64,000 bases of DNA from an uncultured Gammaproteobacteria bacterium. GTDB taxonomy: Bacteria; Patescibacteriota; Microgenomatia; UBA12405. Shown here piece by piece: positions 1 to 26,815 of this stretch. The DNA is taken from assembly GCA_964448705.1 (NCBI GenBank), contig CAYUZS010000004.1, positions 20,105 to 84,104 on the forward strand, written 5' to 3'. The first letter of the stretch is position 1; each line of letters starts with the position of its first letter. The notes under the pieces were generated by a model. It saw only the letters and a program-made list of their open reading frames with translations. It ran no database searches and was not told the origin of the DNA. A program made the position numbers and the translations under genes.

Positions 1-495
1 GTCCTCGGCAAAGCTGCTGTCCTCAACTCCGAACTTGGGGATATCGAAACTCCTCGAGTAGTCTTCGACGAGCACACTCAAAACACCTACCTTTTTAATA
101 ATTGTTTTAATTCTTTTTTTCCTTTCCAAAACCATCAGGGTTCTATACTCACTAATCAAAAAGCCGTCACCGTTCTTGGTACTTTTTTGGAAAACGAATC
201 CCTTTTCCAGAAATATTTTCAAAATAATCTTACCGTGATTGAAATGGAATCCGGTCCGTACCTCTCTGCCATCACCGAGGCCACCTACGATCAACAGCTC
301 CCCCGCCACACTCTTGTCGACCTTCACACTGCTCCCTTTGATGTTGGAATCATTAACTATACCTCAGATACCCCCTATTCTCAGGCCAAAAATCTTGGCA
401 CTGGTTCACTGGAATTAAACGGTGCCGAACCTGTTTATCTCGGCACCCTCGCTATATTGCAGCGCATCATCAGTCTCGAAGAGTCTCGGAAATAA
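1..495 (+). CDS. 5'-partial CDS; C-terminal ~165 aa of an unidentified protein
   Basis: Frame 1 is open from nt 1 to the TAA at 493-495. Track ORF 187..495 is its tail. 'VIEMESGPY' weakly recalls the phosphorylase-superfamily motif; this is not decisive. Confidence 0.35.
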   Translation, partial: VLGKAAVLNSELGDIETPRVVFDEHTQNTYLFNNCFNSFFPFQNHQGSILTNQKAVTVLGTFLENESLFQKYFQNNLTVIEMESGPYLSAITEATYDQQLPRHTLVDLHTAPFDVGIINYTSDTPYSQAKNLGTGSLELNGAEPVYLGTLAILQRIISLEESRK

Positions 496-6256: not shown

Positions 6257-6291
6257 GTGTCAAAAATGTACTGACTGGACATTTTTGACAC
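6257..6291. promoter_or_regulatory. perfect 13-bp inverted repeat GTGTCAAAAATGT-N9-ACATTTTTGACAC
   Basis: Read directly in the intergenic region between the flippase gene end (6343) and the DUF4012-fusion gene start (6047), both on the minus strand. No U-tract follows on either strand. Confidence 0.4.
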
Positions 6292-6342
6292 TAAAAAACT
6301 GTCATTATTATTAAGGGAAAACTATCTCAAAAAAAAATGCTT

Positions 6343-7581: not shown

Positions 7582-7624
7582 ATTCCCATTTTACCCTTTA
7601 TTTTACTGACTGTTTTCGTTTATT

Positions 7625-8911
7625 TTACAATATTCCCAACATTATCGCCAAAAGCCATGTATTTTGTGGCAAAGTCAACCAGTAATGGTCTGTCATTCCG
7701 CTGATAATTACCAATCCCAGCCACCACCAGTTGTTATTATTTCTTTTTCTTTTTAAATTTACGATTAGTTTCCAGCTCACTGCTAATAGTCCCAAAACTC
7801 CGATTTCCGATCCTATTAACAGGAAAACATTATGAACCGGTTGAAGCCAGTTAAAATATCCACCCGAATTGTATTTATCTAAATTAGGGATAAAATTCCC
7901 CGCTCCGACTCCCACCATTAAATTACTCTTCCACATTCTGATTGCCGCCAGGTTCAATTCCATTCTTTTATTCCATCCGTCAATATCCCATCCTCCCACA
8001 AAATCACTTATTCTATAATTCACATTTACTATGCTTGCTGTTAAAATCATTACCCCGACTATCACTATCAAATATCCCCATTTAGTTTTTAAGGAATCTT
8101 TCTCTTTAAAAAATTTCGTATAAATCAACACTAATAAAATCAAAGTTAACAACCAAACTGTCCTGCTTCCGGAAAGAACAATCGCCAATACACCACACCA
8201 CACCACTACCCACCACCAAATTTTTTTTAAAGTATTTTTTTGTGGTCGGATTTTATCGTCAGTAGGGGAGTATTTGTTTACCCACCAACTCAAACTTATT
8301 AAAATAAATCCCGCCAAACTGTTTGGATGGGAAAACGTTCCATAAGCTCTCACTAAACCCTCTCCCCACACTGATATCTGAGCAATTCCGATTGTTGTGA
8401 AGTCAAATCGTCTTTCTCCCAACCACCACCAAAAACCTTGTAGACTTCCTCCCTTTATCACTTGAGACAGTCCTAATATACTTTCCGTTACTATCCAAAC
8501 TGGAATAACTAATTTCAAAAATTGATTTACACTTTTTCTGTTATTCCAGACATATTTAAACATCCACCACCACTGACCTAATCTTAACCACCGATAAACT
8601 GCTGTTGGTTTATTTACCGCTACCAAAATATTTATCACTATAAACAAAAACCAAACTAGATTTTCAAAATTCAATACTTTTTTAATTAACCCCCTTATAT
8701 TCGTTCTTCTTAGCCGCCCCAAAAACAAAATAATCCACCCAATGTCGATTAAATATAAAGTCGGGGACAAATAATCAATTCTTATTCCTTTCACCAAACT
8801 CCAATTCGGCCAAAAATGTTTTCCCAACTGTGTGGGTATCAGCAGCATTACCAAAAATAAGCTCCATTTCTCCGCTTTTACCCAAAATCTTTCCACGCCC
8901 CATCTTAACAC
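7625..8911 (-). CDS. O-antigen ligase/polymerase-like (Wzy_C-type) polytopic membrane protein
   Basis: 428 aa, Trp-rich polytopic protein. 'GSRTVWLLTLILLVLIY' block resembles the Wzy_C region. Sits next to the flippase. Confidence 0.45.
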   Translation of the reverse strand: MLRWGVERFWVKAEKWSLFLVMLLIPTQLGKHFWPNWSLVKGIRIDYLSPTLYLIDIGWIILFLGRLRRTNIRGLIKKVLNFENLVWFLFIVINILVAVNKPTAVYRWLRLGQWWWMFKYVWNNRKSVNQFLKLVIPVWIVTESILGLSQVIKGGSLQGFWWWLGERRFDFTTIGIAQISVWGEGLVRAYGTFSHPNSLAGFILISLSWWVNKYSPTDDKIRPQKNTLKKIWWWVVVWCGVLAIVLSGSRTVWLLTLILLVLIYTKFFKEKDSLKTKWGYLIVIVGVMILTASIVNVNYRISDFVGGWDIDGWNKRMELNLAAIRMWKSNLMVGVGAGNFIPNLDKYNSGGYFNWLQPVHNVFLLIGSEIGVLGLLAVSWKLIVNLKRKRNNNNWWWLGLVIISGMTDHYWLTLPQNTWLLAIMLGIL

Positions 8912-11073: not shown

Positions 11074-11104
11074 TGTGGAAAACTCATCTATAGTCATGTG
11101 GATA
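11074..11104. promoter_or_regulatory. two DnaA boxes (TGTGGAAAA, TGTGGATAA) in the rpmH-dnaA intergenic region
   Basis: TGTGGATAA at 11096-11104 is the exact reverse complement of the consensus TTATCCACA; a 1-mismatch copy sits at 11074-11082. Confidence 0.55.
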
Positions 11105-11203
11105 AACTAAAAAATCATTTTAGCCCCGAATCGATTTTCTGCCTAATTTATCTTATTTTTTAATTAACCATTTAAAGTTAGTCATTAGACATTTCTTTAT
11201 TTT

Positions 11204-12559
11204 ATGGATCTAGATCGTCTTTGGAAAAATACCCAGGAAGAATTAAAAGTCATTCTGGCTTCTTCGGTTTATCAGACTTTTGTCTCTAAGTCACAATTGA
11301 TAGCTTATGACAACAACACGGCCACTATTGCTTGTTCCAGTTCTTATTTTGCTGACATGAATCAAAAGAGATATTATTCCTTTTTTAAAAGTGCCCTTGA
11401 TAATCAAACAAAAACCGATAATTCTCTCTTATTCATCGTTCAGGAACCTCTTAAAAACGAAGAAGATCTGGACAACAACACACCTTTATTTTCCTACAAT
11501 CCCTCCAAAAACATATCTTCGTCTTCTCATCTTCATCCGAAATACACCTTTGATAAATTAATTGTCGGCAATAGTAATAATTTTGCTTTTGCCGCCGCTC
11601 AGGGAATTGTTAAAAATCCAGGTCTTTCTTATAACCCTTTTTTCATTTGGGGTGGGGTAGGGGTTGGAAAAACTCATTTAATGCAGGCTATTGGTCATGA
11701 GCTTATAAAAAACAATTCCTCTTTAAAAATTAAATATTTTCCTGCCGAAACTTTTGGTAACGAATTAATTTCATCCTTAAAATCAAAAACTATCAATCAA
11801 TTCAAAGAAAGATATCGTAATTTAGATTGTATTCTGGTTGACGATATTCAATTTATTGCTGGTAAAGAATATATCCAGGAGGAGTTTTTCCACACATTTA
11901 ATGCTCTGCATATGGCTGGTAAACAGGTAGTTTTAACTTCTGATCGCAAACCTTCTGAAATTAAAGGTTTAGAAGATCGTTTAGTTTCCCGTTTTATGGG
12001 TGGTCTCACTGTCGACATCCAACCTCCGGATTTTGAAATGCGGTCTGCTATTATTTCCCAAAAAGCACAGGAAAAGGGGATTAATATTACTCCGGAAGCT
12101 ATCCAATATTTAGCCGACCATCTTCAATCAAACACCCGGGATATTGAAGGTAAAGTACAGGAAGTTGCTGTTCTCTCTCTTTCTCAACACTATCCGGAAG
12201 TCACTTTGGAATTGGTTGAAAATTATTTTCAACCAAACTCAAATTCATCTTCAGTTTCTACTTTTAATCTTTCAGATAAAATTTCTCCTCGTCATATTAT
12301 TTCGGTTTGTGCCAAACAATTTAATATTAAAACAGGGGATTTATGTGGCAATAGTCGTAAAAAAGAATTGGTTTTTGCCAGACATGTTACTGCCTACCTT
12401 CTTCTTAATGAAATCCGTCTTCCGCTTTCTGAGGTTGGACATTTACTTGGCGGTCGCGATCACACCAGTATTATGCATGCCAGGGATAAAATATCCCAAA
12501 GTATTTCCACTAATCCACAATTACGCTCTCTTATCAACCAAATTAAAACTTCTCTTTAA
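11204..12559 (+). CDS. dnaA: chromosomal replication initiator DnaA
   Basis: Walker A 'GGVGVGKTHLMQAIG'; sensor/box VII region; C-terminal DNA-binding helix 'RHVTAYLLLNEIRLPLSEVGHLLGGRDHTSIMHA'. Confidence 0.95.
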   Translation: MDLDRLWKNTQEELKVILASSVYQTFVSKSQLIAYDNNTATIACSSSYFADMNQKRYYSFFKSALDNQTKTDNSLLFIVQEPLKNEEDLDNNTPLFSYNPSKNISSSSHLHPKYTFDKLIVGNSNNFAFAAAQGIVKNPGLSYNPFFIWGGVGVGKTHLMQAIGHELIKNNSSLKIKYFPAETFGNELISSLKSKTINQFKERYRNLDCILVDDIQFIAGKEYIQEEFFHTFNALHMAGKQVVLTSDRKPSEIKGLEDRLVSRFMGGLTVDIQPPDFEMRSAIISQKAQEKGINITPEAIQYLADHLQSNTRDIEGKVQEVAVLSLSQHYPEVTLELVENYFQPNSNSSSVSTFNLSDKISPRHIISVCAKQFNIKTGDLCGNSRKKELVFARHVTAYLLLNEIRLPLSEVGHLLGGRDHTSIMHARDKISQSISTNPQLRSLINQIKTSL

Positions 12560-12909
12560 CCCTCATAAAGACTTATCCACCGTTTTGATTAAGTTATTCA
12601 CCAACTTATCCACCGCACTTTTTCTTTTTTTCCACCGAAGTAAACCCCAACCTCAGACAAGGTTATAAGACATAAACCATCGTTTCTTCACGCTTTTCAA
12701 CATATTATTTATTTTTCACATCAAAATTATTGCTTTCTCGTTACTAAATACCATCTTTTTTGTATTTTCTCCACTTATCCCCGACGCCTATAAACATAAC
12801 TACTGTTCTGTATATACCCTTTTTATTTATCAACGCATTTTTTCCTTAATCCTTATTTTTAATTTTGTTTATAAACTTTATAAACCTCATAAACTTGTTA
12901 AACTTCAAT
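12560..12909. promoter_or_regulatory. oriC-type region: DnaA box cluster followed by an AT-rich DUE-like tract with 9-bp tandem ATAAACYTN repeats
   Basis: TTATCCACC at 12574-12582 and 12607-12615, TTATTCACC at 12594-12602, then an AT-rich tract from about 12680 to 12905 that includes ATAAACTTT/ATAAACCTC/ATAAACTTG at 12871-12897. Confidence 0.6.
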
Positions 12910-14034
12910 ATGAAACTTTCCTTATTACAGGAGAACCTTAGTTCTGCTTTATCATCAGTTTCTCGTTTTGTTTCTTCTAAAGCCCAACTTCCTATCTTAA
13001 ACAATATTCTTTTTATAACTGATTCTGGAAGACTTAAATTATCAGCCACTAATTTAGAATTAGGAATAAATTATTGGTTGGGAGCCAAGATAGATCAGGA
13101 AGGGAGTTTCACAATTCCTGCCAAAGAAATCACTGAGTTTGTTTCATATCTCCCTTCAGGTAAAATCGATCTCCAATTAAATCCTCAATCTCTTTTGGAA
13201 ATTAACTCCGTAAAAGCTCAATCTTCTTTTACCACTGCTGCCGCCGTTGATTTTCCGACATTACCGGTTTTAGATGATAAAACTTCATTGGAAATAGACT
13301 TAAATATTCTCACTCAGGCAATTTCTCAAATTGCTTTTTCCGCCGCCTCTGATGATTCCCGTCCCATTCTTACCGCTATTTTATGTCGATTCACTAAAGA
13401 TTCATTAAGGTTGGTTGCTACTGATGGTGTCCGGCTTTCTTTAAAAGAAATAAAATTAGTTAACCCTATTGTTATCCCGGAAGGTAAAGATGAATTAACT
13501 TTTTTAGTCCCTTCACGAAGTTTAGTTGAAATTCCTAAACTTGCTAAATCTGTTTCTAAACTAAAGTTTGGTTTAAGTACTGATAGTCACCAACTAATTT
13601 TTGTTATGGAAGATTTGGAATTAGTGTCCCGTCTAATTGAAGGTGAATTTCCAAACTATCAAAGAATTATTCCCGAAACCTTTTCCACTGTCATAAGTTT
13701 AGATAAGAATGAATTTATGCAGGCTGTAAAAATTGCCTCTGTTTTTGCCCGTGAATCAGCTAATGTTGTTAAGTTATCAATCAAAAAAACTAATATCGAG
13801 GTTTCGGCTAATGCTTCTCAAATTGGTCAAAATAAAGTTTCTGTTGATGCCAAAATTGAAGGTGATGGTTTAGAAGTTGCTTTTAACTACAAATATATTT
13901 CCGATTTTCTTTCTGTTTGTCAGAGTAATGAAATTATAATCAGGCTAAATGAACCTTTAACCCCCGGTCTTTTTCAGGACAGTGCCGATCCTCATTTCAC
14001 TCACATCATCATGCCTGTCAGAATCCAGGATTAA
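12910..14034 (+). CDS. dnaN: DNA polymerase III beta sliding clamp
   Basis: 'MKLSLLQENL...LPILNNILF' is a typical DnaN N-terminus. Track ORF 12865 is an upstream extension; M16 at 12910 is the likely start. 374 aa. Confidence 0.9.
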   Translation: MKLSLLQENLSSALSSVSRFVSSKAQLPILNNILFITDSGRLKLSATNLELGINYWLGAKIDQEGSFTIPAKEITEFVSYLPSGKIDLQLNPQSLLEINSVKAQSSFTTAAAVDFPTLPVLDDKTSLEIDLNILTQAISQIAFSAASDDSRPILTAILCRFTKDSLRLVATDGVRLSLKEIKLVNPIVIPEGKDELTFLVPSRSLVEIPKLAKSVSKLKFGLSTDSHQLIFVMEDLELVSRLIEGEFPNYQRIIPETFSTVISLDKNEFMQAVKIASVFARESANVVKLSIKKTNIEVSANASQIGQNKVSVDAKIEGDGLEVAFNYKYISDFLSVCQSNEIIIRLNEPLTPGLFQDSADPHFTHIIMPVRIQD

Positions 14035-14075: not shown

Positions 14076-14480
14076 TTATTCGCTTTCTAAAGTTTCAAAC
14101 TCTAATTTATGTCCTTCTCCTAGCTCACCAAAACCGCTGAGCCAAACATTAATCTCTTTTGTTGCAGATGGTGTTGATGTTCCATCAAGTGTCACGTATA
14201 ACACTTTTGGTGCACTGTATCTTCTTACCACAAAACCATTTCCCGGATAAGGTAATCTGTCCCATAAAGGATATTTCTCTTCATTCACTTGCAGTACTGC
14301 CGGTTCAGTTGCTGTTTTTGTTGGCTCTATTGTCACGGTAGGAATTACATTTTCAACAGTTGGTGTGTATGTTTCAGTATTGTTGTTTTTCCATCCATAT
14401 TTCACTTTAACTACACTTAAAACCACAACTATCAGTGCTAAAAAAAATATAACTCTTAATCTGTATATTTCTTTAATCAT
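14076..14480 (-). CDS. membrane-anchored hypothetical protein (last gene of T4SS-like operon)
   Basis: N-terminal TM 'VIFFLALIVVVLSVV'; 4-nt overlap with the upstream gene. Confidence 0.35.
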   Translation of the reverse strand: MIKEIYRLRVIFFLALIVVVLSVVKVKYGWKNNNTETYTPTVENVIPTVTIEPTKTATEPAVLQVNEEKYPLWDRLPYPGNGFVVRRYSAPKVLYVTLDGTSTPSATKEINVWLSGFGELGEGHKLEFETLESE

Positions 14481-14884
14481 TGTACTTTCCAGTATTGACT
14501 GGTAATTAAGCCATAACCGCTATCATTTACCCATTTTTCCCAAATTACTTTATTTTCCTGGCTGTTGTTTACAATTTTCACCACGAATTTGTTAGTTTGA
14601 TAATCAAAATCTATCGAAAAATAATCATTTTTAATTGGCACCTTACTTCTTAAAATCTTTATTAATTCAATTTCATTGTATTCATTATCTGTTGGGGATA
14701 TGTAAACAGCACCGGTATCAGAAAAATAACTTTCTGATGTTTTTGTTGGGATTAAAACTTTTTCTGTTTCAATTTCTGCTGTTTTTGTTTTATTACTGCC
14801 GCCATTTAACAATAATGCCCAAACAGCAAATAAAATCACTGTTATACAGACAATAATAAGTATTATATTTTTTTTCGACATCAT
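14477..14884 (-). CDS. membrane-anchored hypothetical protein (T4SS-like operon)
   Basis: N-terminal TM 'IILIIVCITVILFAVWALLL'; 2-nt gap to the upstream 1215-aa gene. Confidence 0.35.
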   Translation of the reverse strand: MMSKKNIILIIVCITVILFAVWALLLNGGSNKTKTAEIETEKVLIPTKTSESYFSDTGAVYISPTDNEYNEIELIKILRSKVPIKNDYFSIDFDYQTNKFVVKIVNNSQENKVIWEKWVNDSGYGLITSQYWKVQ

Positions 14885-14885
14885 C

Positions 14886-17800
14886 TTATTTTATAGCGCT
14901 GGCCTCCACCGTCAAACATCCTCTTATATTATGGGCATAGCCGTAAGCTTGTGTTCCATCAAAAGGTGTTCTGATTGGATAATAAGGATCATAAGTTACT
15001 ATTTTTCCATTATTCACTGCTACACCGAGCACAAAATGTCCTCCTAAAGCTAAATTTGAATTTCTGTAATAGTCAGCTAATATCATCACTACTTTTCCTT
15101 CACAAATCCATTTCGCAATCGCTTTTTCATCACAGCCCTGAGTCACTGCGTCATACGCCACTGCTGATGATCCGAACATTTTTGCTAATTCCTGTTTGGC
15201 TTGAAGTAATGAGGATCCTTCTCCGCCCATACTGCTGTAAGCTGACCCTTGCGAGAAAATTATCACCGGTGGTTTCATTTGTCCGTTTTTAATTCTGGCC
15301 ATCATCGAAACACTGGTTGGTCCGCATCCGGCAGAACAGATTGTTCCTCCTCCGTTAAGTGGAGTGCTTCCCCATTCCGGATCACATTGTTTTGTTTCAT
15401 AAGCTTTATCTGAGACGCTGCATTCACCTTCCACTACTACTCCTGTTAATCCCGGAGCATTTGGATCAAAACTAATATTTTGATCTGTTTCTCCGTTTTC
15501 ACAAAGCCAACTATCACCATTTTCATCTACATAAGTATATGTATTATCTCCGCCTGAACTCGAAGAATTACCTATATCTCCACAATTTTGACCACCAGGT
15601 GTCACTTGAATTGAGTCTGGTAATGGTGCGCTGCTAATCCAACTCCATTGCTCTTCAATAAATCCCTTATATTGTCTTGGTGTTACTCCGGCCGGATTCA
15701 ATTTATCAGGATCACAATCTCCGTTTAAGAAATTTGCTGAAAATGCCAACCAATAATCGCCTCCGATTCTTGGATCGTTAATACAGGCACTGGCTGGATT
15801 TAGTTTTAAGAAGGCATTAATCTGTTCGTTGTAATCATTTGGTTTATTAATCGAACTCACTCCGAAGTCATCAACTTCACCGGTGGAATAATTGCTAGCT
15901 CCGGATTCATGTATCCACACCCATAGTGCGTATGTCGGATTTATCCCGGCACACAAAGCTCTGTTAACTGTATCGTTATAGCATTCTTGAGAATAATTTT
16001 TCCCGGTTTTCCATGCATTAGCTTTGCTAATAAAATTTGCTTTATCTACTCCGGCCACTGCATTTTCTGGAGCATTTTGATTACAGTTAATTTGTCCTCC
16101 ATTACTTGTCCCGGTTATTTTGACACAGCTGCCTGTTGTCCCTTTTGGAGCTACTAACGGTGACACTGTCGTCGCCGTTATCATATTTAAACCGATTATT
16201 GCTCCTAATACTGCCGGTACTACCCAGGCAACTATCAATATTGATCCTGCTCCTAAAATTGCCGGTAAACCCAAAAATACCCCAGCCAGTGTTCCTGCCC
16301 AGTGTAAAAATCCGCCAAATCCTTTTCCAAAATTATCCTGGAGCCATACTTTTGTTTTTACTGAACTTAACCCTATACTTTCTGAGAACTTTTCAAAACC
16401 TTTTTTAATTAAACTTCCAGCTTTTTTAATTACCGAAAAACCGAGCATTATTAAAGCCGTTGGTAATCCTCCGACTACTCCTGCCGCCGATAATCCTGCA
16501 GTTGCCGCTCCTTTTGCCGCCGTTGCCGCACCGGCTTTTACCGCCGTCACTGTTCCTTTTGTCGCCAGTTGTCCGATAATGTTTTTGATCCCTCCTTCAA
16601 GTCCCAAGCTGGCGATTTGTGTCGCCATTGCTCCTACCGTTTCTCCGCCAAATTTGGTTGCTAATCGTATTCCAAAATCCTTTAAAGCTTCTATGTGTAA
16701 AATATTGCCTATTTGTGTCGATATTCCTCCGATTGCTGTCGAAATCCTGTCTTGAAATTGAACAATGTTTTGCAATCTTTCCAGAGATTTAACTAATTTT
16801 GGATTTTTACTTAGGATTTTAGCTACAGAACCAAGTTGTCCTAAACTTTTTGATCCTTCAAGTTTTTCCGATATTTTATTGATTCTTTCAATATTTTCAC
16901 TGATTTTAATCGGACTTCTGACCAGATTTTTAATAATTCTTGCTTGCTCTGATACTATTTTGCTTTCAGGATATCCGTTTCTTTTTAAAACACTTTTTTC
17001 TTTATATTGGGATAAGGTTGTAGATTCTTCTTTTTCCGGAAACTGTATTTTTCTTACCAGTGCTGCCATATCTTTGGCTTCTTCTTTTATTACTCCTTTT
17101 TCAATCAATTCATCGTATATTTTTTCTTCTACCTTTTCTGCTCTATACCTATCAATGGCAATAACTTTATTTGTTCTCTCACTGGGAGATCTTTCTTTTT
17201 GTGTGTTTCCTTGAAATTCAACCTCCTTAATCATGGTGTTTTCCACCATAACTTCCCCTTTTTCTATAATTTTCTCAATAGTTGTTTTCTTGTTGTCATC
17301 AATCCCGACTATTTTTTGGATTTTTTGAACTAAACTATCCTCTTTTTCCAGTTCTACTTTTTCACTACTTTTTTCGATTTTTACAGTTGAATCATTGAGT
17401 TTAGTCTCCGGATCATCAAATTTCGCTACTACTCTTTCTTTCACCAATTCACCGATCTGTTTTGTTTTTGTTTCACTGATATTGGTTTCTGTTTTTATTT
17501 GCAGGACAATTTCTTCAGTTATTTGGGAAATTTTTTCCTCTGTATCTACTCTTGACCAGGTGTCATTAGCAATTTTGATTATCTCTTCAGAAGTATTTCT
17601 GTCATTTATTTTTTCTGATTCAATTATTTTTGAAATTTTTACACTGTTTTCTTCGATGGAGTTTTCGGTAAAGGATGTTTCTTTTATTTTTTCAGCTATT
17701 TTTTCAATTGATTCTTTGTTGATTTTGTCTCCGACATTTTGTTGTATTTTTGCCTCTGCAATCAATAGAGTATTAACTCTTTCCGATGCTTCCTTATTGA

Positions 17801-18533
17801 TTGGTTTTTCATTAAGAATCGTTTCTGTTGCAAAAGTAATTTCCTTTATTAAATCGTTGTCTTCGATTTGTGAATTCTTTAATAGCTTATTAACTTTTTC
17901 TCTTTTTGTATTTTTTTCGCCGCCTTCATCCTCAATCTCAACAATTTTTTTAAATATTTTTTCTACCTCTTTCTTGTCAGCTTCTTTGGGTTCTATTTTT
18001 TTAAACCGTTCTTTCAAAACTTCTTCCTTTTTTATCGGTGTTTTGTTTGTTTCTAGTTTTGCTTTTTCTAGTTTTTCCAGCTCAATTTTCCTTTCAATAA
18101 TTCTTTGGATATCTTCAATCCTTACCCGTCTTAAGAGTAGATTATTTTTGATTAATTCCTCCGCTTTAATAATTTCCTTTTCTAAATCATGTTTATCTAA
18201 TTCTTCAAGGAGTGTTTTTAAGTCTTGTTGGTTTAATGCCCGGCTTTCTAATTTTTGACCTTTTATCTCTGCCTCATCAATCTTCTCTTTTATCTCCAAG
18301 TCTTCAATAATTGAACTCAGTTTTACAGATTCTGATTCTAATAATCGGTTATAGATTTCGTTTACATTAAGTGGATTAAATTCATTTACAATTCCTTGTT
18401 CTTCGTACCATTTTCTTATTATTCTGGAGAGATTAGGGTTATCGTTTAAGGTTTTTCCATTCTTTATCAGTTCCTTAAGACTTCCAAACAGCCTTACGTT
18501 TAATTTTTCTAATTCGGCATCTGTTATTTCCAT
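14886..18533 (-). CDS. 1215-aa T4SS-associated multidomain protein: K/E-rich coiled-coil N-region, Gly/Ala-rich polytopic TM core (VirB6/TrbL-like by architecture), Cys-rich ectodomain, C-terminal C39_2-like papain-fold peptidase/cell-wall hydrolase domain
   Basis: 'GCGPTSVSMMAR' aligns to the 'GCEVTSLAM' catalytic-Cys region of C39_2/YvpB-type peptidases; 'GGHFVLGVAVNNGKIVTYDPY' aligns to the His block. Multiple hydrophobic Gly/Ala helices in the centre. Confidence 0.5.
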   Translation of the reverse strand: MEITDAELEKLNVRLFGSLKELIKNGKTLNDNPNLSRIIRKWYEEQGIVNEFNPLNVNEIYNRLLESESVKLSSIIEDLEIKEKIDEAEIKGQKLESRALNQQDLKTLLEELDKHDLEKEIIKAEELIKNNLLLRRVRIEDIQRIIERKIELEKLEKAKLETNKTPIKKEEVLKERFKKIEPKEADKKEVEKIFKKIVEIEDEGGEKNTKREKVNKLLKNSQIEDNDLIKEITFATETILNEKPINKEASERVNTLLIAEAKIQQNVGDKINKESIEKIAEKIKETSFTENSIEENSVKISKIIESEKINDRNTSEEIIKIANDTWSRVDTEEKISQITEEIVLQIKTETNISETKTKQIGELVKERVVAKFDDPETKLNDSTVKIEKSSEKVELEKEDSLVQKIQKIVGIDDNKKTTIEKIIEKGEVMVENTMIKEVEFQGNTQKERSPSERTNKVIAIDRYRAEKVEEKIYDELIEKGVIKEEAKDMAALVRKIQFPEKEESTTLSQYKEKSVLKRNGYPESKIVSEQARIIKNLVRSPIKISENIERINKISEKLEGSKSLGQLGSVAKILSKNPKLVKSLERLQNIVQFQDRISTAIGGISTQIGNILHIEALKDFGIRLATKFGGETVGAMATQIASLGLEGGIKNIIGQLATKGTVTAVKAGAATAAKGAATAGLSAAGVVGGLPTALIMLGFSVIKKAGSLIKKGFEKFSESIGLSSVKTKVWLQDNFGKGFGGFLHWAGTLAGVFLGLPAILGAGSILIVAWVVPAVLGAIIGLNMITATTVSPLVAPKGTTGSCVKITGTSNGGQINCNQNAPENAVAGVDKANFISKANAWKTGKNYSQECYNDTVNRALCAGINPTYALWVWIHESGASNYSTGEVDDFGVSSINKPNDYNEQINAFLKLNPASACINDPRIGGDYWLAFSANFLNGDCDPDKLNPAGVTPRQYKGFIEEQWSWISSAPLPDSIQVTPGGQNCGDIGNSSSSGGDNTYTYVDENGDSWLCENGETDQNISFDPNAPGLTGVVVEGECSVSDKAYETKQCDPEWGSTPLNGGGTICSAGCGPTSVSMMARIKNGQMKPPVIIFSQGSAYSSMGGEGSSLLQAKQELAKMFGSSAVAYDAVTQGCDEKAIAKWICEGKVVMILADYYRNSNLALGGHFVLGVAVNNGKIVTYDPYYPIRTPFDGTQAYGYAHNIRGCLTVEASAIK

Positions 18534-18555
18534 TTGATTGATTATACCAATCTTA

Positions 18556-21009
18556 CTAGACTATTCCGTTACCGAAAAGCTTGTCGTAATCCATTTTTGT
18601 TTTTTGATTTTCCTCACTTTTATCGGGAACATTTTCAGTTGTCGGTTGAGGACTTTGTGTTTTTTCAAAGACCGGGTTAGTTTTTTTTGATAACTGCGGT
18701 GGCTGTGGTATTTTAACTTCCTCGGTTTTGTTTATAAACAAAGGTTTATTGTTTTGATTATTATTGGACACTGTTTCCACTTTTAATGGTTCAAATTTCG
18801 GTAATGGGGGCAGCTTTCCGCTGTTATTAATAAACAAATCTTTATACTTCGGTAATCCTCCTTGTGGATTGCTGTTTACTTCTGGAATCTTTTGTTTTTC
18901 TAATTCCTCTTTTTGCTGACGTTCGTGTTCCATAATCTTTGCTTTCTCCATTTCTTCCATTTCCGCTATTCGTTTTTGAATATTTGCTTCAGGGCTGGGT
19001 GCCGCTTTCTCTTCCACAATTTCCTCACTTAATTTTAATTCATTTTTAATATTTTCTTCTTCTACCACCTTCTCTTTTTCCGGTGGTTTTGTCTCGATTA
19101 ATGGGGTTTCTTTTATTACTTCCGTTGGTATTTTTTCCTGAGTTTCCTCAATTTTTGGAACATTTACCACCGCTGCCGTTTCAAAAACTTTTTTCTGTTG
19201 TTTCATTTTTAATATTTCTTCCGGATTAGAAGTGATCAGTTTATGTTCATCTTCAGATGCAACTACCCGAATAGCCACGTGATTTTGTCCTGCAAAAAAT
19301 ATTCCCTCACCTTTATCTGCTGCCAATAACAATTGTTTTTCTCCTTCTGATAGATAAAACACTTGTCCGACCTGATCTATGGCTGCACTATGTTGTTTCA
19401 GTAATATTTGAATTGCGCTGTTAGTCACAATTTCTTTTCCGTATGGAGTCTGTAGAAAATCATCTACATCCTGAGTGATTGTTGTTACTCCCAAATAATA
19501 TTTTCTTCCTCTTTTTACAATTCCTCTTAAAAAGGCTGCCGAGTCATCGTATTGCATTAAATACCAAGCTTCATCGACTACCAATATTCTCTTTTTTAAT
19601 TCTTTTTTAACTACTGTCCAAATGTAGTCCAGGATAATATGCATTGCCACAGGTCTCAATGTCTCTTCCAAATTTCTGATTCCGAAAACCACAAATTGAT
19701 TGTTTAAATTCACCGTTGTTTTTTGGTTAAATATTCCCGCAAAAGATCCTTTAATATATTTCTCCAACCTTGCTGCAATTCCGGCTGCTTTTTGATCTTC
19801 CATTCCTATCAATGATTTATATAAATCTTCAATAAGTGGTGGTTCTTTGTTTTGTGTCTCCGGATCGGGAGTTATCCCTTTCATTTTGTAAGCATCAACA
19901 ATCGCTCTGTCTAAAATAGATTCTTCGATTGGATCCATTTCGCCCAGCATTACTTTAAAAAGTTTGTGTAAAGTTAATACTTTGGAATTTAAAGCATTTT
20001 CTCCCTCATCGACCACCAACGATAAATCGAAAGGATTAATTTTCGATTCCTCTCCGTAGCCAAAAGCAATATATTGTCCGCCTACTGCTTCAGCCAAGTC
20101 TTTATATTCGTTTTCCGGATCAATAACTATAATTTCCGTTCCCATCATCAACGATCGTAAAACTTCCAGTTTAATCAAGTATGACTTTCCTGCACCCGCA
20201 GTGGCAAACACCACAGAATTGTAGTTTTGCATGGAAAATCGGTCAAAAATAATCAATGAACCGTTATGTTCATTTATTCCGTACATAATTCCTTTATCAT
20301 CGGATAGGTCAGAGGATACAAATGGGAAAGTCGTCGCTAAAGAAGTTGTGTCCATGTTCCTGGTCAGATTCAACTTGTCTAAACATAAAGGAAGAGTGGT
20401 AATAAAAGCATCTTCTGATTGATAGTTGGTTCTTTTTGTTAACACCATCAACGCCCCCATCGCCGACTCCAGGTTTTTAGTTATTTTGTCAAGATCGTCT
20501 TTTGTATCTGCCGACAAAGTCATATACAGTCCCATTTGAAAAAATCTTTCCTCACCTTTTACTAAATCTGCCTGTAAGTTCAAAGCATCCTCAAGCTTAG
20601 CCTGAGTTGCCGGATTCACAATTCTTCCTCGTTGAATATCAGTTGTTAATTCTGCCTCCATTTCGGTAATTTTTCTTCTTAAATCGTCTAGAATTTCTTT
20701 CCCGTCGGAAGGGTAAATGTACATGGATATAGTTTGAGAAGCATCAAAATTAATCAATGAAGACAGCCAGTTTATTTCCACAAAACGTCTGTTGATCACC
20801 GTAAACATTGTTCTGTAATACTTATTACCGATTTTTATAAAATCTGTATCTACCTCCAAAGCTCCTGGTGCAATAATGTCTTTTGTTGAAACTAAACCTT
20901 CCACAAAATTTCTTTCATTACTTTTTTTATTCTCTTGTGTCGTTGTTGGTGTTTGGTTTTCTGTTTCGACTTTCTTGCCTTGTCCAAACAGCTTTTTAAA
21001 ATCCATCAT
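18556..21009 (-). CDS. VirB4/TraC/CagE-family type IV secretion ATPase (Gram-positive type)
   Basis: N-terminal 'YYRTMFTVINRRFVEINWLSSL' (YPR..GWL-type block); Walker A-like 'ATAGAGKSY'; Walker B 'ILVVDEAWYLM'. The C-terminal roughly 200 aa are a P/K/E-rich low-complexity extension. Confidence 0.85.
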   Translation of the reverse strand: MMDFKKLFGQGKKVETENQTPTTTQENKKSNERNFVEGLVSTKDIIAPGALEVDTDFIKIGNKYYRTMFTVINRRFVEINWLSSLINFDASQTISMYIYPSDGKEILDDLRRKITEMEAELTTDIQRGRIVNPATQAKLEDALNLQADLVKGEERFFQMGLYMTLSADTKDDLDKITKNLESAMGALMVLTKRTNYQSEDAFITTLPLCLDKLNLTRNMDTTSLATTFPFVSSDLSDDKGIMYGINEHNGSLIIFDRFSMQNYNSVVFATAGAGKSYLIKLEVLRSLMMGTEIIVIDPENEYKDLAEAVGGQYIAFGYGEESKINPFDLSLVVDEGENALNSKVLTLHKLFKVMLGEMDPIEESILDRAIVDAYKMKGITPDPETQNKEPPLIEDLYKSLIGMEDQKAAGIAARLEKYIKGSFAGIFNQKTTVNLNNQFVVFGIRNLEETLRPVAMHIILDYIWTVVKKELKKRILVVDEAWYLMQYDDSAAFLRGIVKRGRKYYLGVTTITQDVDDFLQTPYGKEIVTNSAIQILLKQHSAAIDQVGQVFYLSEGEKQLLLAADKGEGIFFAGQNHVAIRVVASEDEHKLITSNPEEILKMKQQKKVFETAAVVNVPKIEETQEKIPTEVIKETPLIETKPPEKEKVVEEENIKNELKLSEEIVEEKAAPSPEANIQKRIAEMEEMEKAKIMEHERQQKEELEKQKIPEVNSNPQGGLPKYKDLFINNSGKLPPLPKFEPLKVETVSNNNQNNKPLFINKTEEVKIPQPPQLSKKTNPVFEKTQSPQPTTENVPDKSEENQKTKMDYDKLFGNGIV

Positions 21010-21734
21010 AGTTTTGCTGTTGAACTTGTATCTTTGGTAGTCACCATTGGAGAGTCATAGTTAAGAGTTTGTATCTTTTGATTAGGTTCAGTATCTTCGT
21101 TGTATATTTTGTAGAACAATTCGATTAATTCTTTAGTGTTTAAAGCTCTGATCTCCAAACCTAGTCTCGAGAATAACCGGCTTAGATGATCTTTTTTGGG
21201 TTCCAAACTGGCTTTTGCTTTTTCCAATATATAATCTTTGGAAAAGGGTAGTTCTTTTACTGTTTTTTGTGGCATAAAAGGTAATCCCCCCAATACTTGT
21301 GAAGACATACTTTTTATTCCAAGTTCTAATACTGAAAACGGAATCACCATATAAAAAGATTTTGAAAGGACATCGTTTCTCTTGACGGTTTCTTCTATAA
21401 ATTTACGATAGAAAGATATTCTGTCTTTAAGCAGGGGATTGCTTTGGTTTTCTTCAAGCTTTCTTAAATTATTTAGATAAATGCTTACATCTTTTGTACT
21501 TGAAGATATTACAATTTGGATAGGAAAATTAAGAGAATTTAATATTCCTCCATAGGCAAAAACTAAAGCACTTTGCTCCCTTTCTGAAAGTAAGTCGAAA
21601 TTTACCGAAGAAATTTGTAAAACAGCCGCACACGATCCGTCTTTTAATATCACTGTTCCGTCGATAATGTCCTCAATCGGCAGATGCTCTTGAGTACTTC
21701 CTTTAATTGCTATTTTTAATGGATCAATTGCCAT
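21006..21734 (-). CDS. hypothetical T4SS-operon protein, translationally coupled to virB4-like gene
   Basis: 4-nt overlap with the virB4-like start; no motif assignable with confidence. Confidence 0.3.
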   Translation of the reverse strand: MAIDPLKIAIKGSTQEHLPIEDIIDGTVILKDGSCAAVLQISSVNFDLLSEREQSALVFAYGGILNSLNFPIQIVISSSTKDVSIYLNNLRKLEENQSNPLLKDRISFYRKFIEETVKRNDVLSKSFYMVIPFSVLELGIKSMSSQVLGGLPFMPQKTVKELPFSKDYILEKAKASLEPKKDHLSRLFSRLGLEIRALNTKELIELFYKIYNEDTEPNQKIQTLNYDSPMVTTKDTSSTAKL

Positions 21735-21756
21735 ACTAATTTAATAATAACCTACT

Positions 21757-22677
21757 TTAAGTAATCGCTTTAATTTTAATTGGTTCTACTATTTTACCGG
21801 TTAAATTAACATTAATTCTATCGAATTTATACTGTTCTTTTTCTGTAATCACCAAATAGTTTCCATCAGCCATCGGAGTAGTAGTTTTAAATTGCCCTAA
21901 AGAATTGGTTTTTAACACTCTGCTTGGGTTTCCTTTTTCATCTTGAATTTCAATTATTGCTCCCTCAACGATTTTTCCTTCACTGTCTGTTACCATTCCT
22001 ACTACAATGTTTGGAATATCCGGTTTGTCAGGCATTGGTATTTGTCCAAAAACAGTTTTTCCCGTCGCACTCAATTTTTCTGTTTTCAAGTTTAAGTTAA
22101 CCGCTTTATCTTGCCAATTTTCACTGTCGCTCTTTTCATTTAACAATGGTGTTTTTTCTTTTATCGGTTCATCCTGTTGGCTTATTTTAGTCTCTTTAAT
22201 AACCTGCAATTCCTCTTTTTTCTTCTCGGCCAATTCTGTTTCCCGACTCATTTTTACACTCGGTAAAGATTCGATGAACTCTTTTACTTTTTCCTTGTTT
22301 TTAATTGGCAGCGATTCAGTTTCTTCATCTAAAATAACATCATTTACTTTGCTTTTGCTCATGATTAAGTTAATCCAGTCGCTGTCGGGCATTTTCTTGT
22401 AGGTATAGATTGTTGGTGAATAGATCGATTTAATAAAAGACCTTATCCATAAATCTAATGGTCTGTCCTGAAAGGGGACAAAGGCTAACAATAGTCCGCC
22501 GCCGCCGCAAATAATCATTAATGGCCATTTTAAAAAGAAAATTAAATGAGAAGCATTAATTAATAACGCCAGCACAATACCCACCGCCGCTTTCAAAAAT
22601 TGTTTTAATGTCATGTCTCCCACCAGCTTAAACTCATACGAGCTTATCTGTTGAGGAATTGCATGTTGTTCCATCAC
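21757..22677 (-). CDS. membrane protein with C-terminal CarboxypepD_reg-like beta-sandwich domain (first gene of T4SS-like operon)
   Basis: Two N-terminal TM helices. C-terminal 'VGMVTDSEGKIVEGAIIEIQDEKGNPSRVLKTNSLGQFKTTTPMADGNYLVITEKEQY' fits the CarboxypepD_reg/PEGA-type pattern (G.V.D..G.P..gA.V.....G.....Td.nG.F.....p.G.Y). Confidence 0.4.
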   Translation of the reverse strand: MMEQHAIPQQISSYEFKLVGDMTLKQFLKAAVGIVLALLINASHLIFFLKWPLMIICGGGGLLLAFVPFQDRPLDLWIRSFIKSIYSPTIYTYKKMPDSDWINLIMSKSKVNDVILDEETESLPIKNKEKVKEFIESLPSVKMSRETELAEKKKEELQVIKETKISQQDEPIKEKTPLLNEKSDSENWQDKAVNLNLKTEKLSATGKTVFGQIPMPDKPDIPNIVVGMVTDSEGKIVEGAIIEIQDEKGNPSRVLKTNSLGQFKTTTPMADGNYLVITEKEQYKFDRINVNLTGKIVEPIKIKAIT

Positions 22678-22757
22678 TAAATTCTATCTTAACCTTCCTT
22701 TTTTATAAACTTTCAACTTTACGAACTTTCAACTTTATAAACTTGATAAACTACTCT

Positions 22758-23730: not shown

Positions 23731-24855
23731 ATGAAGATTGCCCTAGTCCATGACTACCTTAAAGATTACGGTGGAGCCGAATCAGTTCTGGAAACTTTAA
23801 GTGATATTTTCCCGGAAGCTCATATTTTTACTTCTGTTTACGCCCCAAAATATTTTGGTCCTCATCGTGCTCGTCTTGAAAAAAAATGGCATGGCCGTAT
23901 CCATCAAAGTTTTATCGGTTATTTTCCTTTATCTCCTAAGCTTCTCAGCCCTCTGCGCTTTTTATCTCCTCTTCTCTTCAAATCCTTTGACTTTTCCGGC
24001 TACGATCTGATTATTACTTCCGCTACCGGTGCTTTTTTTCCCAATTCTTTGAATAAAAAATCGGCTCGTCTAATCTGTTATTGCCACACCCCTCCGCGAT
24101 ATCTTTATGGTTTGGTAACCGCCCGTTCTCTCGATTGTTGGTTCTATCGTTTAATAAATATTCCTTTGCAGTTTGTCCTTCATTTTTACCGTCTTTTTGA
24201 TTTCAAATTTGCTCAAAATGTTGATCAGTTTATTGCCAATTCTGCCACAACCGCCGCCCGCATCAAAAAATTTTATCGTCGCTCTGCTGTCATTATTAAT
24301 CCTCCTGTCAGTATTCCTAATCTGCCTGCCCTGTCAAGGGAAGGTAGCCGTAGGTCGGAAGGGTTATTTTATCTTACCGGTGGTCGCCTTGCCCGTGCCA
24401 AACGTTACGATATCGCCATCTCTGCTTGTAAAAAACTAAATCTTCCTCTTAAAATTTTTGGTCGTGATTTTGCTGGTTACGAGGCAGAGTTAAAAAAACT
24501 TGCCGGTTCAAAAGTTGAGTTTTTAGGTGAAATTACCAATGAACAAAAATTTCAACTTTTAAGTCAAGCCCAAGCTTTCATTTTTCCCTCCGACAATGAA
24601 GATTTTGGCATTGCTCCGGTTGAAGCTATGGCTTGTGGCACCCCTGTTGTTGGTTATCGCAGTGGTGGAACAGCTGAAACTGTTTTAGATGGTAAAACCG
24701 GAGTTTTGTTCGATAAACTTACTCCTGAATCCTGTGCTCAGGCTATTCAAAAACTTTCTCGGATCAAAATCAGTTCCGACAATTGCCGTTCCCGTGCCAA
24801 GGCTTTCTCTAAAGATGAATTCGTAAGAAAAATTACTAAAATCATTAAATCTTAA
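23731..24855 (+). CDS. glycosyltransferase family 4 (GT-B, group 1)
   Basis: '[45 protein letters not shown]' is the canonical GT4 EX7E block. Confidence 0.8.
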
Positions 24856-25811
24856 TTTTTTAACCATCTCTCGGCATCCAGTCCCGCCTTCGCCCCGTCT
24901 CCGGCTGCCACAATTGCCTGTCGATAAACATCATCCACACAATCTCCGGCTGCAAAAATGCCTTCCTTTGAAGTCATTGTTAAAAATTCAGGATTTTTTC
25001 CGGTTAAAATTTGTCCGGTTTCTTTGGTTTCTACCATACCCTTCACAAATTCAGTTTCCGGGGTATGTCCTATTGCCACAAACATTCCATCAATTATTAA
25101 TTCTCTTTCCTCACCGGTTTTATTATTTTTAATCTTTATGGACTCTAATTTTTCTTCCCCATGAATTTCACTTACTTCGTTATTCCATAGAAATTCAATT
25201 TTTTTGTTTTCCGTTACCCGTTTTTTTTGCGGCACTTGCGCCCGAAGTTCATCTCTCCGGTGGATTATATAAACCTTCGATGCAAATTTAGTCAAAAAAT
25301 CCGCATCCTCACAGGCCACATCTCCACCGCCGATCACTGCCACTGTTTTATCTCTAAAAAACATTCCGTCACAGGTTGCGCACCCGGAAATTCCATGGCC
25401 GATTAATTCTCTTTCTTTTGGTATTCCCAACCATTTTGCCTTAGCTCCGGTAGTTATTATCACTGCCTTACTTTTTAAAATTTCACCGTCTTCTAAAGTA
25501 ATTATGAAAATTTTTCTATTGGAGTTTCCTTCAGAGGCGATTGTTTCATCCGAAATGTTTTTAACCAATCCCTGCTTTATTTCTCCGCCCAAATTTTTAA
25601 CCTGTTGCTGCATATCCATCATCAATTTCACTCCACCGGTTCCGTTTGTAAATCCTGGCCAATTATCCACCGTAGTTGTAATTGTCAGTTGACCTCCCGG
25701 AGTATTTCCCGAGATTACGATAGTCTTTAAATTTGCTCTGATATTATAAATAGCTGCTGTCAGTCCGGCCGGTCCCGAACCGATGATAATTGTGTCATAA
25801 ATTTCTTGCAT
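24852..25811 (-). CDS. trxB: thioredoxin-disulfide reductase
   Basis: FAD site '[15 protein letters not shown]'; redox-active 'GCATCDG'; NADPH site '[14 protein letters not shown]'; 319 aa. Confidence 0.9.
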
Positions 25812-25894: not shown

Positions 25895-26815
25895 ATGTCC
25901 CGTGATAGCCGTAAAGTTTTTTCCTTTGTCCTTAAAATAATTTCTGATCGTTGGGGTTTGTTTTTTTGGTTGTTTGTTCGTTTTGTTTCTGCCATTCTCC
26001 CTTTAGTTACTATTTATCTTTATTCCTTAGTTGTCGGTCAGTTGGAAAAAAAACTTTCTCTCTCTCTTCTTACGCTTACTATTCTGGCTACCTTTATTGT
26101 CCGTATTGTTGATAATTATCTCCGTTTGCTTTCCATTTCCAAATTAGAAATAGTCATCAGCAACATCAGTTTTGATATCCACAATTATTTTCTTTCTGAT
26201 TTAGATTCCAAGAGTAAAGAGGATCGTCATGCTGCTGTTCAGGCCGTTCGTAATTTTTCTGATGCCTCATCCGTCACTTTGAATTTAATCAAACAACCTG
26301 GTGTCGATAGTATTGTCTCTTTCATTTTCATCCCTTTTATTCTTCTCTTCCAGGATTTTCCTTCTTTTGTCATCACCGTAGCTTATATTGCAGTTTATTT
26401 CAGTATCGATACCTACACCACTCAACGTTATTCAGAATTAAAAGATATTCAGAATACTAAAACTGAAGCTTATTATGCCAAACTTCAGGATAGTAATGAT
26501 TTTGATTTGGAACAAACTGCTTATACCCGCCATTTTGACCGTTTAAGTCGTTGGGGTACTACTGAATGGTTTTCTTTGCAAAATTCTGCAGTTTTTTTCT
26601 ATTGTTTAAATCTTTTTTACTTGGTTTACCAAGTCTCTCTTGGTCAACAAAGTTTATCCGGTTTAGTTTTGGTTATGGGATATGTTTCTCAGACTCAAAC
26701 CTTTCTCAATTCCTTTTCCCAAATACTTGATAGCTTAACGGACATGAGTGTTGGTCTAAAACATTTGGCTAAAAATCCGGTTGTTTCTGTTATCGATCTT
26801 GATGATTTGATTTAA
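25895..26815 (+). CDS. membrane protein with ABC-exporter transmembrane-domain-like fold, no nucleotide-binding domain
   Basis: Six predicted TM helices with spacing and motifs like a type-I ABC exporter TMD. The ORF ends before mutM with no Walker motifs. Confidence 0.35.
   Translation: MSRDSRKVFSFVLKIISDRWGLFFWLFVRFVSAILPLVTIYLYSLVVGQLEKKLSLSLLTLTILATFIVRIVDNYLRLLSISKLEIVISNISFDIHNYFLSDLDSKSKEDRHAAVQAVRNFSDASSVTLNLIKQPGVDSIVSFIFIPFILLFQDFPSFVITVAYIAVYFSIDTYTTQRYSELKDIQNTKTEAYYAKLQDSNDFDLEQTAYTRHFDRLSRWGTTEWFSLQNSAVFFYCLNLFYLVYQVSLGQQSLSGLVLVMGYVSQTQTFLNSFSQILDSLTDMSVGLKHLAKNPVVSVIDLDDLI

Follow-up and report, generated by a model that had tools for sequence, protein, structure and literature searches.

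A chromosomal type IV secretion-like operon beside dnaN in a Microgenomatia genome, with a separate pilin module and a variable region of predicted wall hydrolases

The role of type IV secretion systems (T4SSs) in the candidate phyla radiation (CPR) is an open question; they are near-universal in the phylum and essential in the one species tested. A survey of 3,035 genomes by Quinonero-Coronel et al. 2025 (PMC12102498) recovered a monophyletic Patescibacteria clade of the ATPase VirB4, nested in the MPF-FATA class. Relaxases were nearly absent, proximity to dnaA and dnaN was seen in Microgenomatia and Paceibacteria, and TrsD, PrgI-type VirB3 and VirB2 arrays were frequent (especially in Microgenomatia). 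In the same survey, based on hidden Markov models, VirB3 and VirB6 were rarely associated with virB4 in Microgenomatia. Here we describe such a system in a 64,000-nucleotide stretch, hereafter the window (positions 20,105 to 84,104 of the forward strand of contig CAYUZS010000004.1, assembly GCA_964448705.1). Its source is an uncultured bacterium deposited as a member of the Gammaproteobacteria and placed by GTDB in Patescibacteriota, Microgenomatia, UBA12405. The system centres on an operon of six minus-strand genes, g1 to g6, that includes virB4 and lies beside dnaN.

Wang et al. 2023 (PMC10633639) found the T4SS of the cultivated Saccharibacterium Southlakia epibionticum to be essential, with pilins and no recognisable coupling protein or relaxase. 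To grow as an epibiont, this species needs the system, including the pilin array and the homologues of peptidase and lysozyme encoded downstream of virB4 (PMC10633639; PMC12102498). Reviews describe the function of the system as unknown (PMC11665869) and the system itself as unique among monoderms (PMC12857230), and tubular structures have been seen to join a cultured member of the phylum to its host (bioRxiv 10.64898/2026.06.21.733656). CHAP- and M23-type domains are among those found in the VirB1-type hydrolases of monoderm T4SSs (PMC4027160, PMC12102498).

Against this background, the locus is very probably the energising and wall-breaching half of a chromosomal Patescibacteria-type T4SS related to the monoderm MPF-FATA systems, one that links an epibiont to its host and moves macromolecules rather than exporting DNA by conjugation. 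A first-pass annotation, made by a model from the sequence alone, had singled out the position of the operon and the absence of a relaxase as notable. Both points are already in the literature. The system is a published one, and our smaller new points are the swapping of hydrolase heads, a hypervariable region after virB4, the g5/g6 family, a conserved promoter and a nucleotide skew that does not invert.

The VirB4 operon and its chromosomal setting

Gene g1 runs from 22677 or 22674 to 21757 (306 or 305 amino acids, aa), g2 from 21734 to 21006 (242 aa), g3 from 21009 to 18556 (817 aa), g4 from 18533 to 14886 (1215 aa), g5 from 14884 to 14477 (135 aa) and g6 from 14480 to 14076 (134 aa), all on the minus strand. 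From g1 to g6 the junctions are, in order, 22 nt, a 4-nt overlap (the g2 stop codon with the g3 start), 22 nt, 1 nt and a 4-nt overlap. A Logan contig (run SRR8925806), with genes called independently, gave identical products of 305, 242, 817, 1215, 135 and 134 aa, bearing out the six co-directional, tightly packed or overlapping genes of the first-pass annotation. The GC content of the operon, 0.34-0.37, is the same as that of its flanks. Although the operon had been described as directly downstream of dnaN, and is indeed adjacent to it, the two are convergent, lying tail-to-tail with 41 nt between their stop codons. The six genes are therefore neighbours of dnaN and not transcriptionally downstream of it.

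Profile matches and motifs identify g3 as a VirB4 ATPase (residues 1-599) with a 218-aa tail. It scores 388 bits against the NCBIfam model of the CD1110 family of VirB4 (cut-off 325) and matches Pfam P-loop_TraG at E 2e-29, with further matches to AAA_10 and DUF87. Its best-scoring models are monoderm families (profile matches, not a tree), in line with the Gram-positive type first proposed. Homologues number in the thousands; the nearest are 62-81% identical and come from Candidatus Shapirobacteria and other Patescibacteria, and every named one among the closest 120 is from Shapirobacteria or Patescibacteria. The earlier assignment to the T4SS-like systems of CPR episymbionts thus holds, and agrees with PMC12102498, PMC10633639 and PMC12857230. 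The VirB4 motifs reported earlier are also present, namely Walker A (ATAGAGKS, 269-276), Walker B (ILVVDE, 475-480), the block YYRT...INWL at residues 64-82 and a tail rich in proline, lysine and glutamate, but the N-terminal domain is not in g3 and is split off as g2. Indeed, g3 aligns only to positions 172-734 of the 752 in the CD1110 model, so that this domain is missing from its polypeptide.

The product of g2 is best identified, from its profile matches, as a free-standing TrsD/TraD-like protein, the counterpart of the N-terminal domain that a full-length VirB4 carries. It matches NCBIfam TrsD (NF041427) at E 8.8e-10, with a bit score under the family cut-off, aligns to the Mbov_0397 VirB4 model (positions 103-233) and the CD1110 model (positions 2-74), and has a recorded match to PF26593 (TraC-like). 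Homologues of g2 adjoin VirB4 on Bacillota and haloarchaeal plasmids. To compare relatives, one genome per species was scanned, yielding 80 loci of Candidatus Shapirobacteria; g2 was found in 79 of them, and g1 adjoins it in 75.

By similarity, g1 is a PrgI/VirB3-like membrane protein, with two transmembrane segments by hydropathy, a linker rich in lysine and glutamate, and a C-terminal beta-sandwich resembling CarboxypepD_reg (E 4e-7). Its match to Pfam PrgI (E 1.1e-4, 23.1 bits, under the gathering score of 27) covers profile positions 2-88 of 91, and the orthologue on L120, a contig from a more distant relative, exceeds the threshold at 28.3 bits. Profile searches on the five non-ATPase proteins, which the first-pass annotation had suggested, recover a sub-threshold PrgI-like g1, but find no VirB6 in g4 and no family match for g5 or g6. 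Its description of membrane-anchored proteins around VirB4 is supported by hydropathy, with two segments in g1, three in g4 and one each in g5 and g6.

The VirB4 tail, defined by composition, spans residues 600-817 (18559..19212, minus strand), and proline, lysine and glutamate make up 42% of it, against 18% of the body. Across 15 homologues, E688, P720, F758, P768-Q769-P770, Y808 and F812 are invariant, and the conserved short motifs include a C-terminal one, KMDYDKLFGNGIV. With these invariant residues and this motif, the tail is more than plain low-complexity sequence. Its C-terminal DYDKLFGNG echoes DFKKLFGQG at the g3 N-terminus, and its coding region contains a 96-nt internal DNA repeat. 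The more distant VirB4 orthologue on L120 (615 aa) has no tail.

A consensus scan places the operon promoter at 22681..22709 on the minus strand, with a -35-like TTTATA (22709-22704), a 17-nt spacer and the -10 box TAGAAT (22686-22681). The -10 box ends only 6 nt upstream of the g1 ATG, which implies a leaderless transcript, with the transcription start predicted from promoter spacing. This arrangement is conserved: of 71 related loci, 66 have TAnAAT 5-8 nt upstream of the g1 ATG, the distance being exactly 6 nt in 52, and a TG extension of the box occurs in 30. The conserved position of the promoter supports the ATG at 22674 as the start of g1. Two exact copies of TAAAGTTGAAAGTT, 16 nt apart, can be read directly from the sequence at 22708..22737 (minus strand), in the 80-bp spacer between g1 and a divergent 5'-3' exonuclease gene. 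They form a possible regulator site, and are not kept as such in the related loci.

Genes for conjugation were sought with a Pfam scan of all window open reading frames (ORFs) of at least 500 aa and those of 300-499 aa except dnaA, dnaN and a trxB-labelled ORF (24852-25811), which took their names from synteny. Near the operon, none of the scanned ORFs matched a family of relaxases, coupling proteins or integrases; a few of the scanned ORFs have no family match at all (for example, 25895-26815, 49201-50310 and 52955-54085). With respect to VirD4 or TcpA, every window ORF of at least 500 aa belongs to another family or to the operon. The reported absence of VirD4 and relaxase from the window stands for the scanned ORFs, and it extends outwards, with neither a relaxase nor a coupling protein in a 9.5-kb left flank; to the right of the window, a 2.9-kb contig was all that was recovered. 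No notable intergenic inverted repeat surrounds the operon, and an origin of transfer is not recognisable without its relaxase family.

Gene order is the same across the 80 loci: fpg-o25895-trxB-GT-exo, then g1-g2-g3, a variable stretch, dnaN-dnaA and rnpA-yidC. The flanking names are our labels, of which only exo and the glycosyltransferase (GT) were verified against Pfam. Since these housekeeping flanks are fixed and GC content resembles that of the surroundings, we conclude that the locus is chromosomal and vertically inherited, and is not an integrative conjugative element (ICE). It might instead be the remnant of one, decayed or domesticated, shorn of relaxase, coupling protein and integrase and no longer a working machine. 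VirB4 and TrsD are closest to proteins of monoderm plasmids and ICEs, and an insertion sequence (IS) 3-type transposase, a truncated serine recombinase and a tRNA gene occur at 61-64 kb. However, all six ORFs are intact, the promoter is conserved, many species still share 62-81% identity in VirB4 and its invariant catalytic motifs, and the position is the same in all 80 loci. Further, that recombinase, the nearest to the operon, is about 40 kb away, past housekeeping genes and within a separate restriction-modification/IS island. We regard a decayed element as extremely improbable.

The variable region after virB4

In contrast to its flanks, the interval between virB4 and dnaN is hypervariable, ranging from 163 bp (loci L029 and L031) to 9 kb. 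Nearly all loci have one large membrane protein here (580-1156 aa), followed by one to three small proteins with a single transmembrane segment. In the window the large protein is g4, which had been described as a giant polytopic protein ending in a hydrolase domain. The hydrolase end is upheld by a C39-like C-terminus, but g4 has only three hydrophobic segments and no similarity to TrbL/VirB6. A role as a channel subunit is therefore unsupported, and g4 reads better as a membrane-anchored wall hydrolase of the VirB1 type.

The first 560 residues of g4 (16854..18533, minus strand) are rich in glutamate, lysine and isoleucine, internally repetitive, free of cysteine and presumed to be cytoplasmic. 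They are not conserved between species, with a tblastn match in only 4 of the 80 loci. The membrane domain that follows (residues 561-810; 16104..16853, minus strand) comprises a Gly/Ala-rich amphipathic stretch and the three hydrophobic segments, and ends in VSSxVPP in most relatives and VSPLVAP in the window copy. An iterative search detected this domain in 46 large proteins downstream of virB4, and 42 cluster representatives match it among 1.84 billion proteins. By these matches, it is the conserved core of the large protein after virB4, and belongs to a small, fast-diverging family.

Two putative enzymatic heads complete the protein. The middle domain (residues 806-1010; 15504..16118, minus strand) is all-alpha and lysozyme-like in an AlphaFold2 model built from a 39-sequence alignment (predicted local distance difference test score, pLDDT, 85.9). 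It has an invariant W..HES.ASNY..DFG pattern and six conserved cysteines, and Glu876 is invariant in the 39 sequences. In PDB, the model is most similar to a glucosaminidase domain from an endolysin of C. difficile (8yxk_A; target-normalised TM-score 0.55, E 2.5e-3, probability 1.00). Next come a chitinase of glycoside hydrolase family 23, a g-type lysozyme and the GH73 autolysins Auto and AtlA, and weaker matches extend to phage glucosaminidases and transglycosylases. By sequence the domain has no credible match in Pfam or PDB, including the SLT and Glucosaminidase families. Its HES.ASNY...DFG resembles the GH73 motif, ESGWG...N(L)FGIK. At the level of fold, then, the middle domain is a probable peptidoglycan glycosidase.

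The C-terminal domain (residues 1011-1215; 14889..15503, minus strand) resembles the C39 cysteine peptidases, which have a papain fold. All nine orthologous C-terminal domains match Pfam Peptidase_C39_2, the best at E 3.4e-8, and the window copy does so at E 9.8e-4 (20.1 bits, under the gathering score of 24). The invariant residues are the Cys of GCGP(T/S)S, the His of G-H and an Asp. All 15 cysteines of g4 fall within residues 803-1206, which fits an extracellular location for both heads in the topology that we infer for the protein. Both heads are predicted to cleave peptidoglycan. A second AlphaFold2 run, on residues 561-1215 with a seven-sequence alignment, reached a pLDDT of 43, and a fold search with that model found nothing.

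Judged by their domain matches, these heads are swapped between species. The lysozyme-like domain occurs in 15-21 loci and the C39-like head in 8, a Peptidase_M23 head replaces the latter in other relatives (P0122, P0124, P0129), and the orthologous position on L120 holds a CHAP-domain protein.

The small proteins g5 and g6 each have an N-terminal transmembrane segment, a Pro/Thr linker and a domain of about 65 aa, which in g6 follows the pattern YPLW..LPY.G..F.I.RY. Cross-hits in an iterative search identify them as paralogues. Of the roughly 50 loci that cover the region after virB4, about 40 have a member of the g6 family, and we read g6 as a conserved accessory subunit. The g5 subtype is found in exactly the eight loci with a C39-like head (L001, L011, L015, L017, L044, L050, L052 and L065). 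The family has no Pfam or PDB match, and its folded part is only about 65 aa long. Single members gave matches to SpoIIIAH (1.7e-5) and to the N0 domain of GspD, a hint of a ring-building motif, but a family profile against PDB gave no support and both were set aside.

Such variation invites the view that the apparatus delivers effectors or toxins, with the heads of g4 as payload against the host wall and the g5 subtype as their cognate immunity protein or chaperone. The hypervariability of the region, the exchange of heads between species (lysozyme-like with C39-like, lysozyme-like with M23, or CHAP) and the restriction of the g5 subtype to loci with the C39-like head would all fit, as would one weak fold match of the middle domain to 4kt3, a glycoside-hydrolase effector of a type VI secretion system. 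On the other hand, 46 orthologous proteins share the conserved membrane anchor, as would be expected of an enzyme for structure or assembly more than of an effector that is released. Moreover, g5 is no more than a paralogous form of g6, which is widely conserved, and the VirB1-type hydrolases of conjugative systems are just as modular. We consider effector delivery unlikely.

We speculate, with a good deal of doubt, that the stretch after virB4 is a host-range cassette. Its heads, matched in each species to the wall chemistry of the host, would breach the host envelope where the tip or the base of a VirB2-type tube meets it. The g5 subtype would protect or control the C39-like head, and the Shapirobacteria-specific VirB4 tail, with its conserved terminal motif, would take over the recruitment of substrates from a coupling protein. 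Such a scheme is quite improbable as a whole.

The partner pilin module and the dnaA region

The operon is only part of the system. A look-up with FtsH (509-2446) retrieved a 22.6-kb contig, L083, that reaches 9.5 kb past the left window edge (window coordinate = 11873 - L083 coordinate). Moving away from the window, L083 encodes a DUF6909 protein, whose gene runs off the left edge with its 3' end at 187..495 (plus strand), then proteins of 764, 561 and 441 aa, and six pilin genes. A second T4SS module thus lies on the plus strand at about -9.0 to -3.7 kb in window coordinates. The first-pass description of the system as compact fails, with the pilin array and the 441-aa and 561-aa proteins 3.7-9 kb to the left of the window. 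With the left module on the plus strand and the operon on the minus strand, both point towards the dnaA region; from end to end, the system covers about 32 kb.

The six tandem genes for VirB2-like pilins occupy about -9.0 to -6.7 kb (L083 18546-20872, plus strand in window coordinates). At 28-42 bits (E 9e-11 to 2e-6), five of their products exceed the gathering score of PF18895, which is 26.6, and one product also matches TrbC/VirB2. The sixth ORF, uncalled, has a sub-threshold NCBIfam match (19.6 bits, cut-off 40) and tblastn orthologues in relatives. Sub-threshold matches also link the pilins to the NCBIfam 'Mbov_0395 family pilin-like conjugal transfer protein' of mycoplasma ICEs. These matches suggest that pilin-like proteins may exist within monoderm MPF-FATA systems and need not have been borrowed from diderm ones. 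The 441-aa protein is secreted and has eight cysteines. The 561-aa protein begins with an extracytoplasmic domain and has about 11 hydrophobic segments; by topology and position it is the best candidate for VirB6.

The arrangement of pilins, 441-aa protein, 561-aa protein, DUF6909 protein and FtsH recurs on Shapirobacteria-like metagenome contigs. On eight others (L110, L113, L116, L118, L120, L123, L124 and L129), whose proteins are less similar and which represent more distant relatives, the pilins, a 561-aa homologue and g1-g3 form one co-directional cluster; on L120 it continues with the CHAP protein, a g6-like protein and dnaN. We infer that a single inversion of the dnaA-bearing segment, with a breakpoint between the 561-aa gene and g1, would interconvert the two layouts. 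Gene orientations fit this idea, but a comparison of flanks lends it no support, as L083 and L120 have unrelated genes next to the pilin array.

The segment between the modules carries dnaA (11204-12559, plus strand), dnaN (about 12910-14034, plus strand) and DnaA-box clusters at 11074-11105 and 12511-12614. The earlier placement of the operon next to the replication origin draws on dnaA and these boxes; skew does not support it. GC skew on the plus strand, overall and at third codon positions (GC3), keeps its sign: across window positions 1-46000 both are negative on either side of dnaA, whatever the gene orientation, and the skew nears zero only past about 46 kb. Because it does not invert at dnaA, the position of a functional origin is not confirmed within the window. 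An origin at about 46 kb, where cumulative GC skew reaches its minimum, was considered, but this point is more likely the edge of the restriction-modification/IS island.

That island, at 46000-64000, is low in GC and behaves like a defence and mobile island. It includes two N6/N4 DNA methyltransferases (47627-49204), two ORFs without assignment (49201-51104), a helicase fused to an MTES_1575-type nuclease domain (59094-61232), the IS3-type transposase (61311-62436), the truncated serine recombinase (62520-63359) and the tRNA gene (63862-63945). Between the two modules, a surface-polysaccharide cluster at 3072-8911 encodes a 991-aa DUF4012 protein, a Polysacc_synt flippase-like protein and a Wzy_C (O-antigen ligase-like) protein. 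A metal/redox cluster at 30014-34436 encodes a DsbD-like membrane protein with HMA and cupredoxin domains, a P-type heavy-metal ATPase and a DsbA-like protein with a thioredoxin fold. Its capacity to form disulphides is relevant to the cysteine-rich secreted parts of the T4SS.

Proposed function and comparison with known systems

The roles of VirB3, VirB4, VirB2 and VirB1 in other T4SSs suggest how the apparatus might work. VirB4 extracts and polymerises pilins in Gram-negative systems. Here, g1 and g2 would dock the VirB4 hexamer at the membrane, where it would use ATP to extract the VirB2-like pilins from the membrane and polymerise them into a tube. The extracellular heads of g4 would open the wall locally for the structure to cross, perhaps that of the cell itself, possibly that of the host, and g5 and g6 would form part of an envelope-spanning scaffold. 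The completed apparatus would connect the epibiont with its host cell and move macromolecules.

A rival proposal is that the machine runs in reverse, as a ComB-like T4SS that takes up host DNA or RNA to feed a cell unable to make nucleotides. A relaxase or coupling protein is near neither module, and uptake has been raised for Saccharibacteria, in which the competence system is dispensable and the T4SS essential (PMC11665869). In addition, a 2026 preprint ties VirB4 to the acquisition of host RNA (10.64898/2026.06.21.733656). Yet nothing in the sequence indicates the direction of transport, neither module encodes a nuclease, a ComEC-like channel or a DNA-binding protein, and the sole experimental precedent for import, ComB of H. 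pylori, is in a diderm. We see uptake as rather unlikely.

Several points weigh against reading the locus as a host-linking T4SS. The experimental evidence comes from outside the Microgenomatia. A coupling protein may be encoded elsewhere in the genome; such proteins are common in Patescibacteria, far from virB4 (PMC12102498). The window copies of g1 and g4 match PrgI and C39_2 below the Pfam gathering scores, a VirB8-like protein was not identified, and neither of the bitopic proteins g5 and g6 matches a Pfam or PDB sequence. Nor is VirB6 secure: profile comparison of the 561-aa candidate with TrbL gave a probability of 0.9%, none of the 19 members of its family matched a Pfam family, and the g4 membrane domain does not match a TrbL (VirB6) protein in profile comparison. 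The glycosidase assignment depends on one moderate fold match (target-normalised TM-score 0.55), and a Lys-rich loop between hydrophobic segments 1 and 2 of g4 misfits a simple model with the N-terminus inside and the C-terminus outside. Finally, two related genomes (L029 and L031) have nothing between virB4 and dnaN (interval 12280-12443), and their 21-kb loci contain neither a g4 nor a g6 homologue. Cells may thus do without g4-g6, or the genes may lie at another site.

The window adds no new kind of system, but offers a clean Microgenomatia example of a known one. Components reported as rare in this group are present but divergent, namely a PrgI-like protein, a wall hydrolase and a candidate VirB6, and the two halves of the system can lie apart, on either side of the dnaA region. 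The wall-cutting module varies fastest between species, making it a natural place to seek host specificity.

Among monoderm plasmids, the operons of pGO1, pSK41 and pIP501 (TrsC-TrsD-TrsE-TrsF-TrsG; MPF-FATA) share with the window the order VirB3-like protein, TrsD, VirB4 and wall hydrolase, and the N-terminal domain of VirB4 as a separate TrsD protein. Unlike them, the system described here has no relaxase, coupling protein, topoisomerase or adhesin, and does have VirB2-like pilins; its hydrolase is not of the SLT or CHAP type, and a VirB6 of the TrbL or PrgH type is undetectable by sequence. The Bacillaceae plasmid pOM18 is collinear with the window operon, in the order small-small-TrsD-VirB4-lysozyme-small-TrbL, although profile comparison found no similarity of the g4 membrane and middle domains to its TrbL and lysozyme proteins. 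This Peribacillus plasmid (NZ_CP026096.1, 9728-16166; our locus L081) is typed as non-mobilizable, has a type IA topoisomerase nearby and has no relaxase annotated in the stretch viewed.

The large hydrolase has counterparts in TraG (pIP501), PrgK (pCF10) and TcpG (pCW3), which likewise combine a membrane-anchored glycosidase and peptidase encoded beside virB4. It differs from them in that its glycosidase is recognisable only by fold, with no Pfam match, its peptidase is C39-like, and its anchor is a conserved 250-aa domain of three segments placed after a long cytoplasmic region; its activity is predicted.

The closest likeness is to the T4SSs of the Patescibacteria clade (PMC12102498), including that of S. 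epibionticum (SEML1_0006-0019). Shared features are a CPR-lineage VirB4 with an adjoining TrsD, a PrgI/VirB3-like protein, peptidase and lysozyme functions downstream of virB4, a VirB2-like array, the lack of a relaxase, a chromosomal location and, as in other Microgenomatia, proximity to dnaA and dnaN. What sets the present system apart is its division into two modules flanking dnaA, the 218-aa VirB4 tail with conserved motifs, and the fusion of the hydrolase to a three-segment membrane domain and a 560-aa N-terminus rich in lysine and glutamate. Moreover, where the published survey rarely found VirB3 with virB4 in Microgenomatia, a sub-threshold PrgI-like gene is adjacent in 75 of the 80 Shapirobacteria loci.

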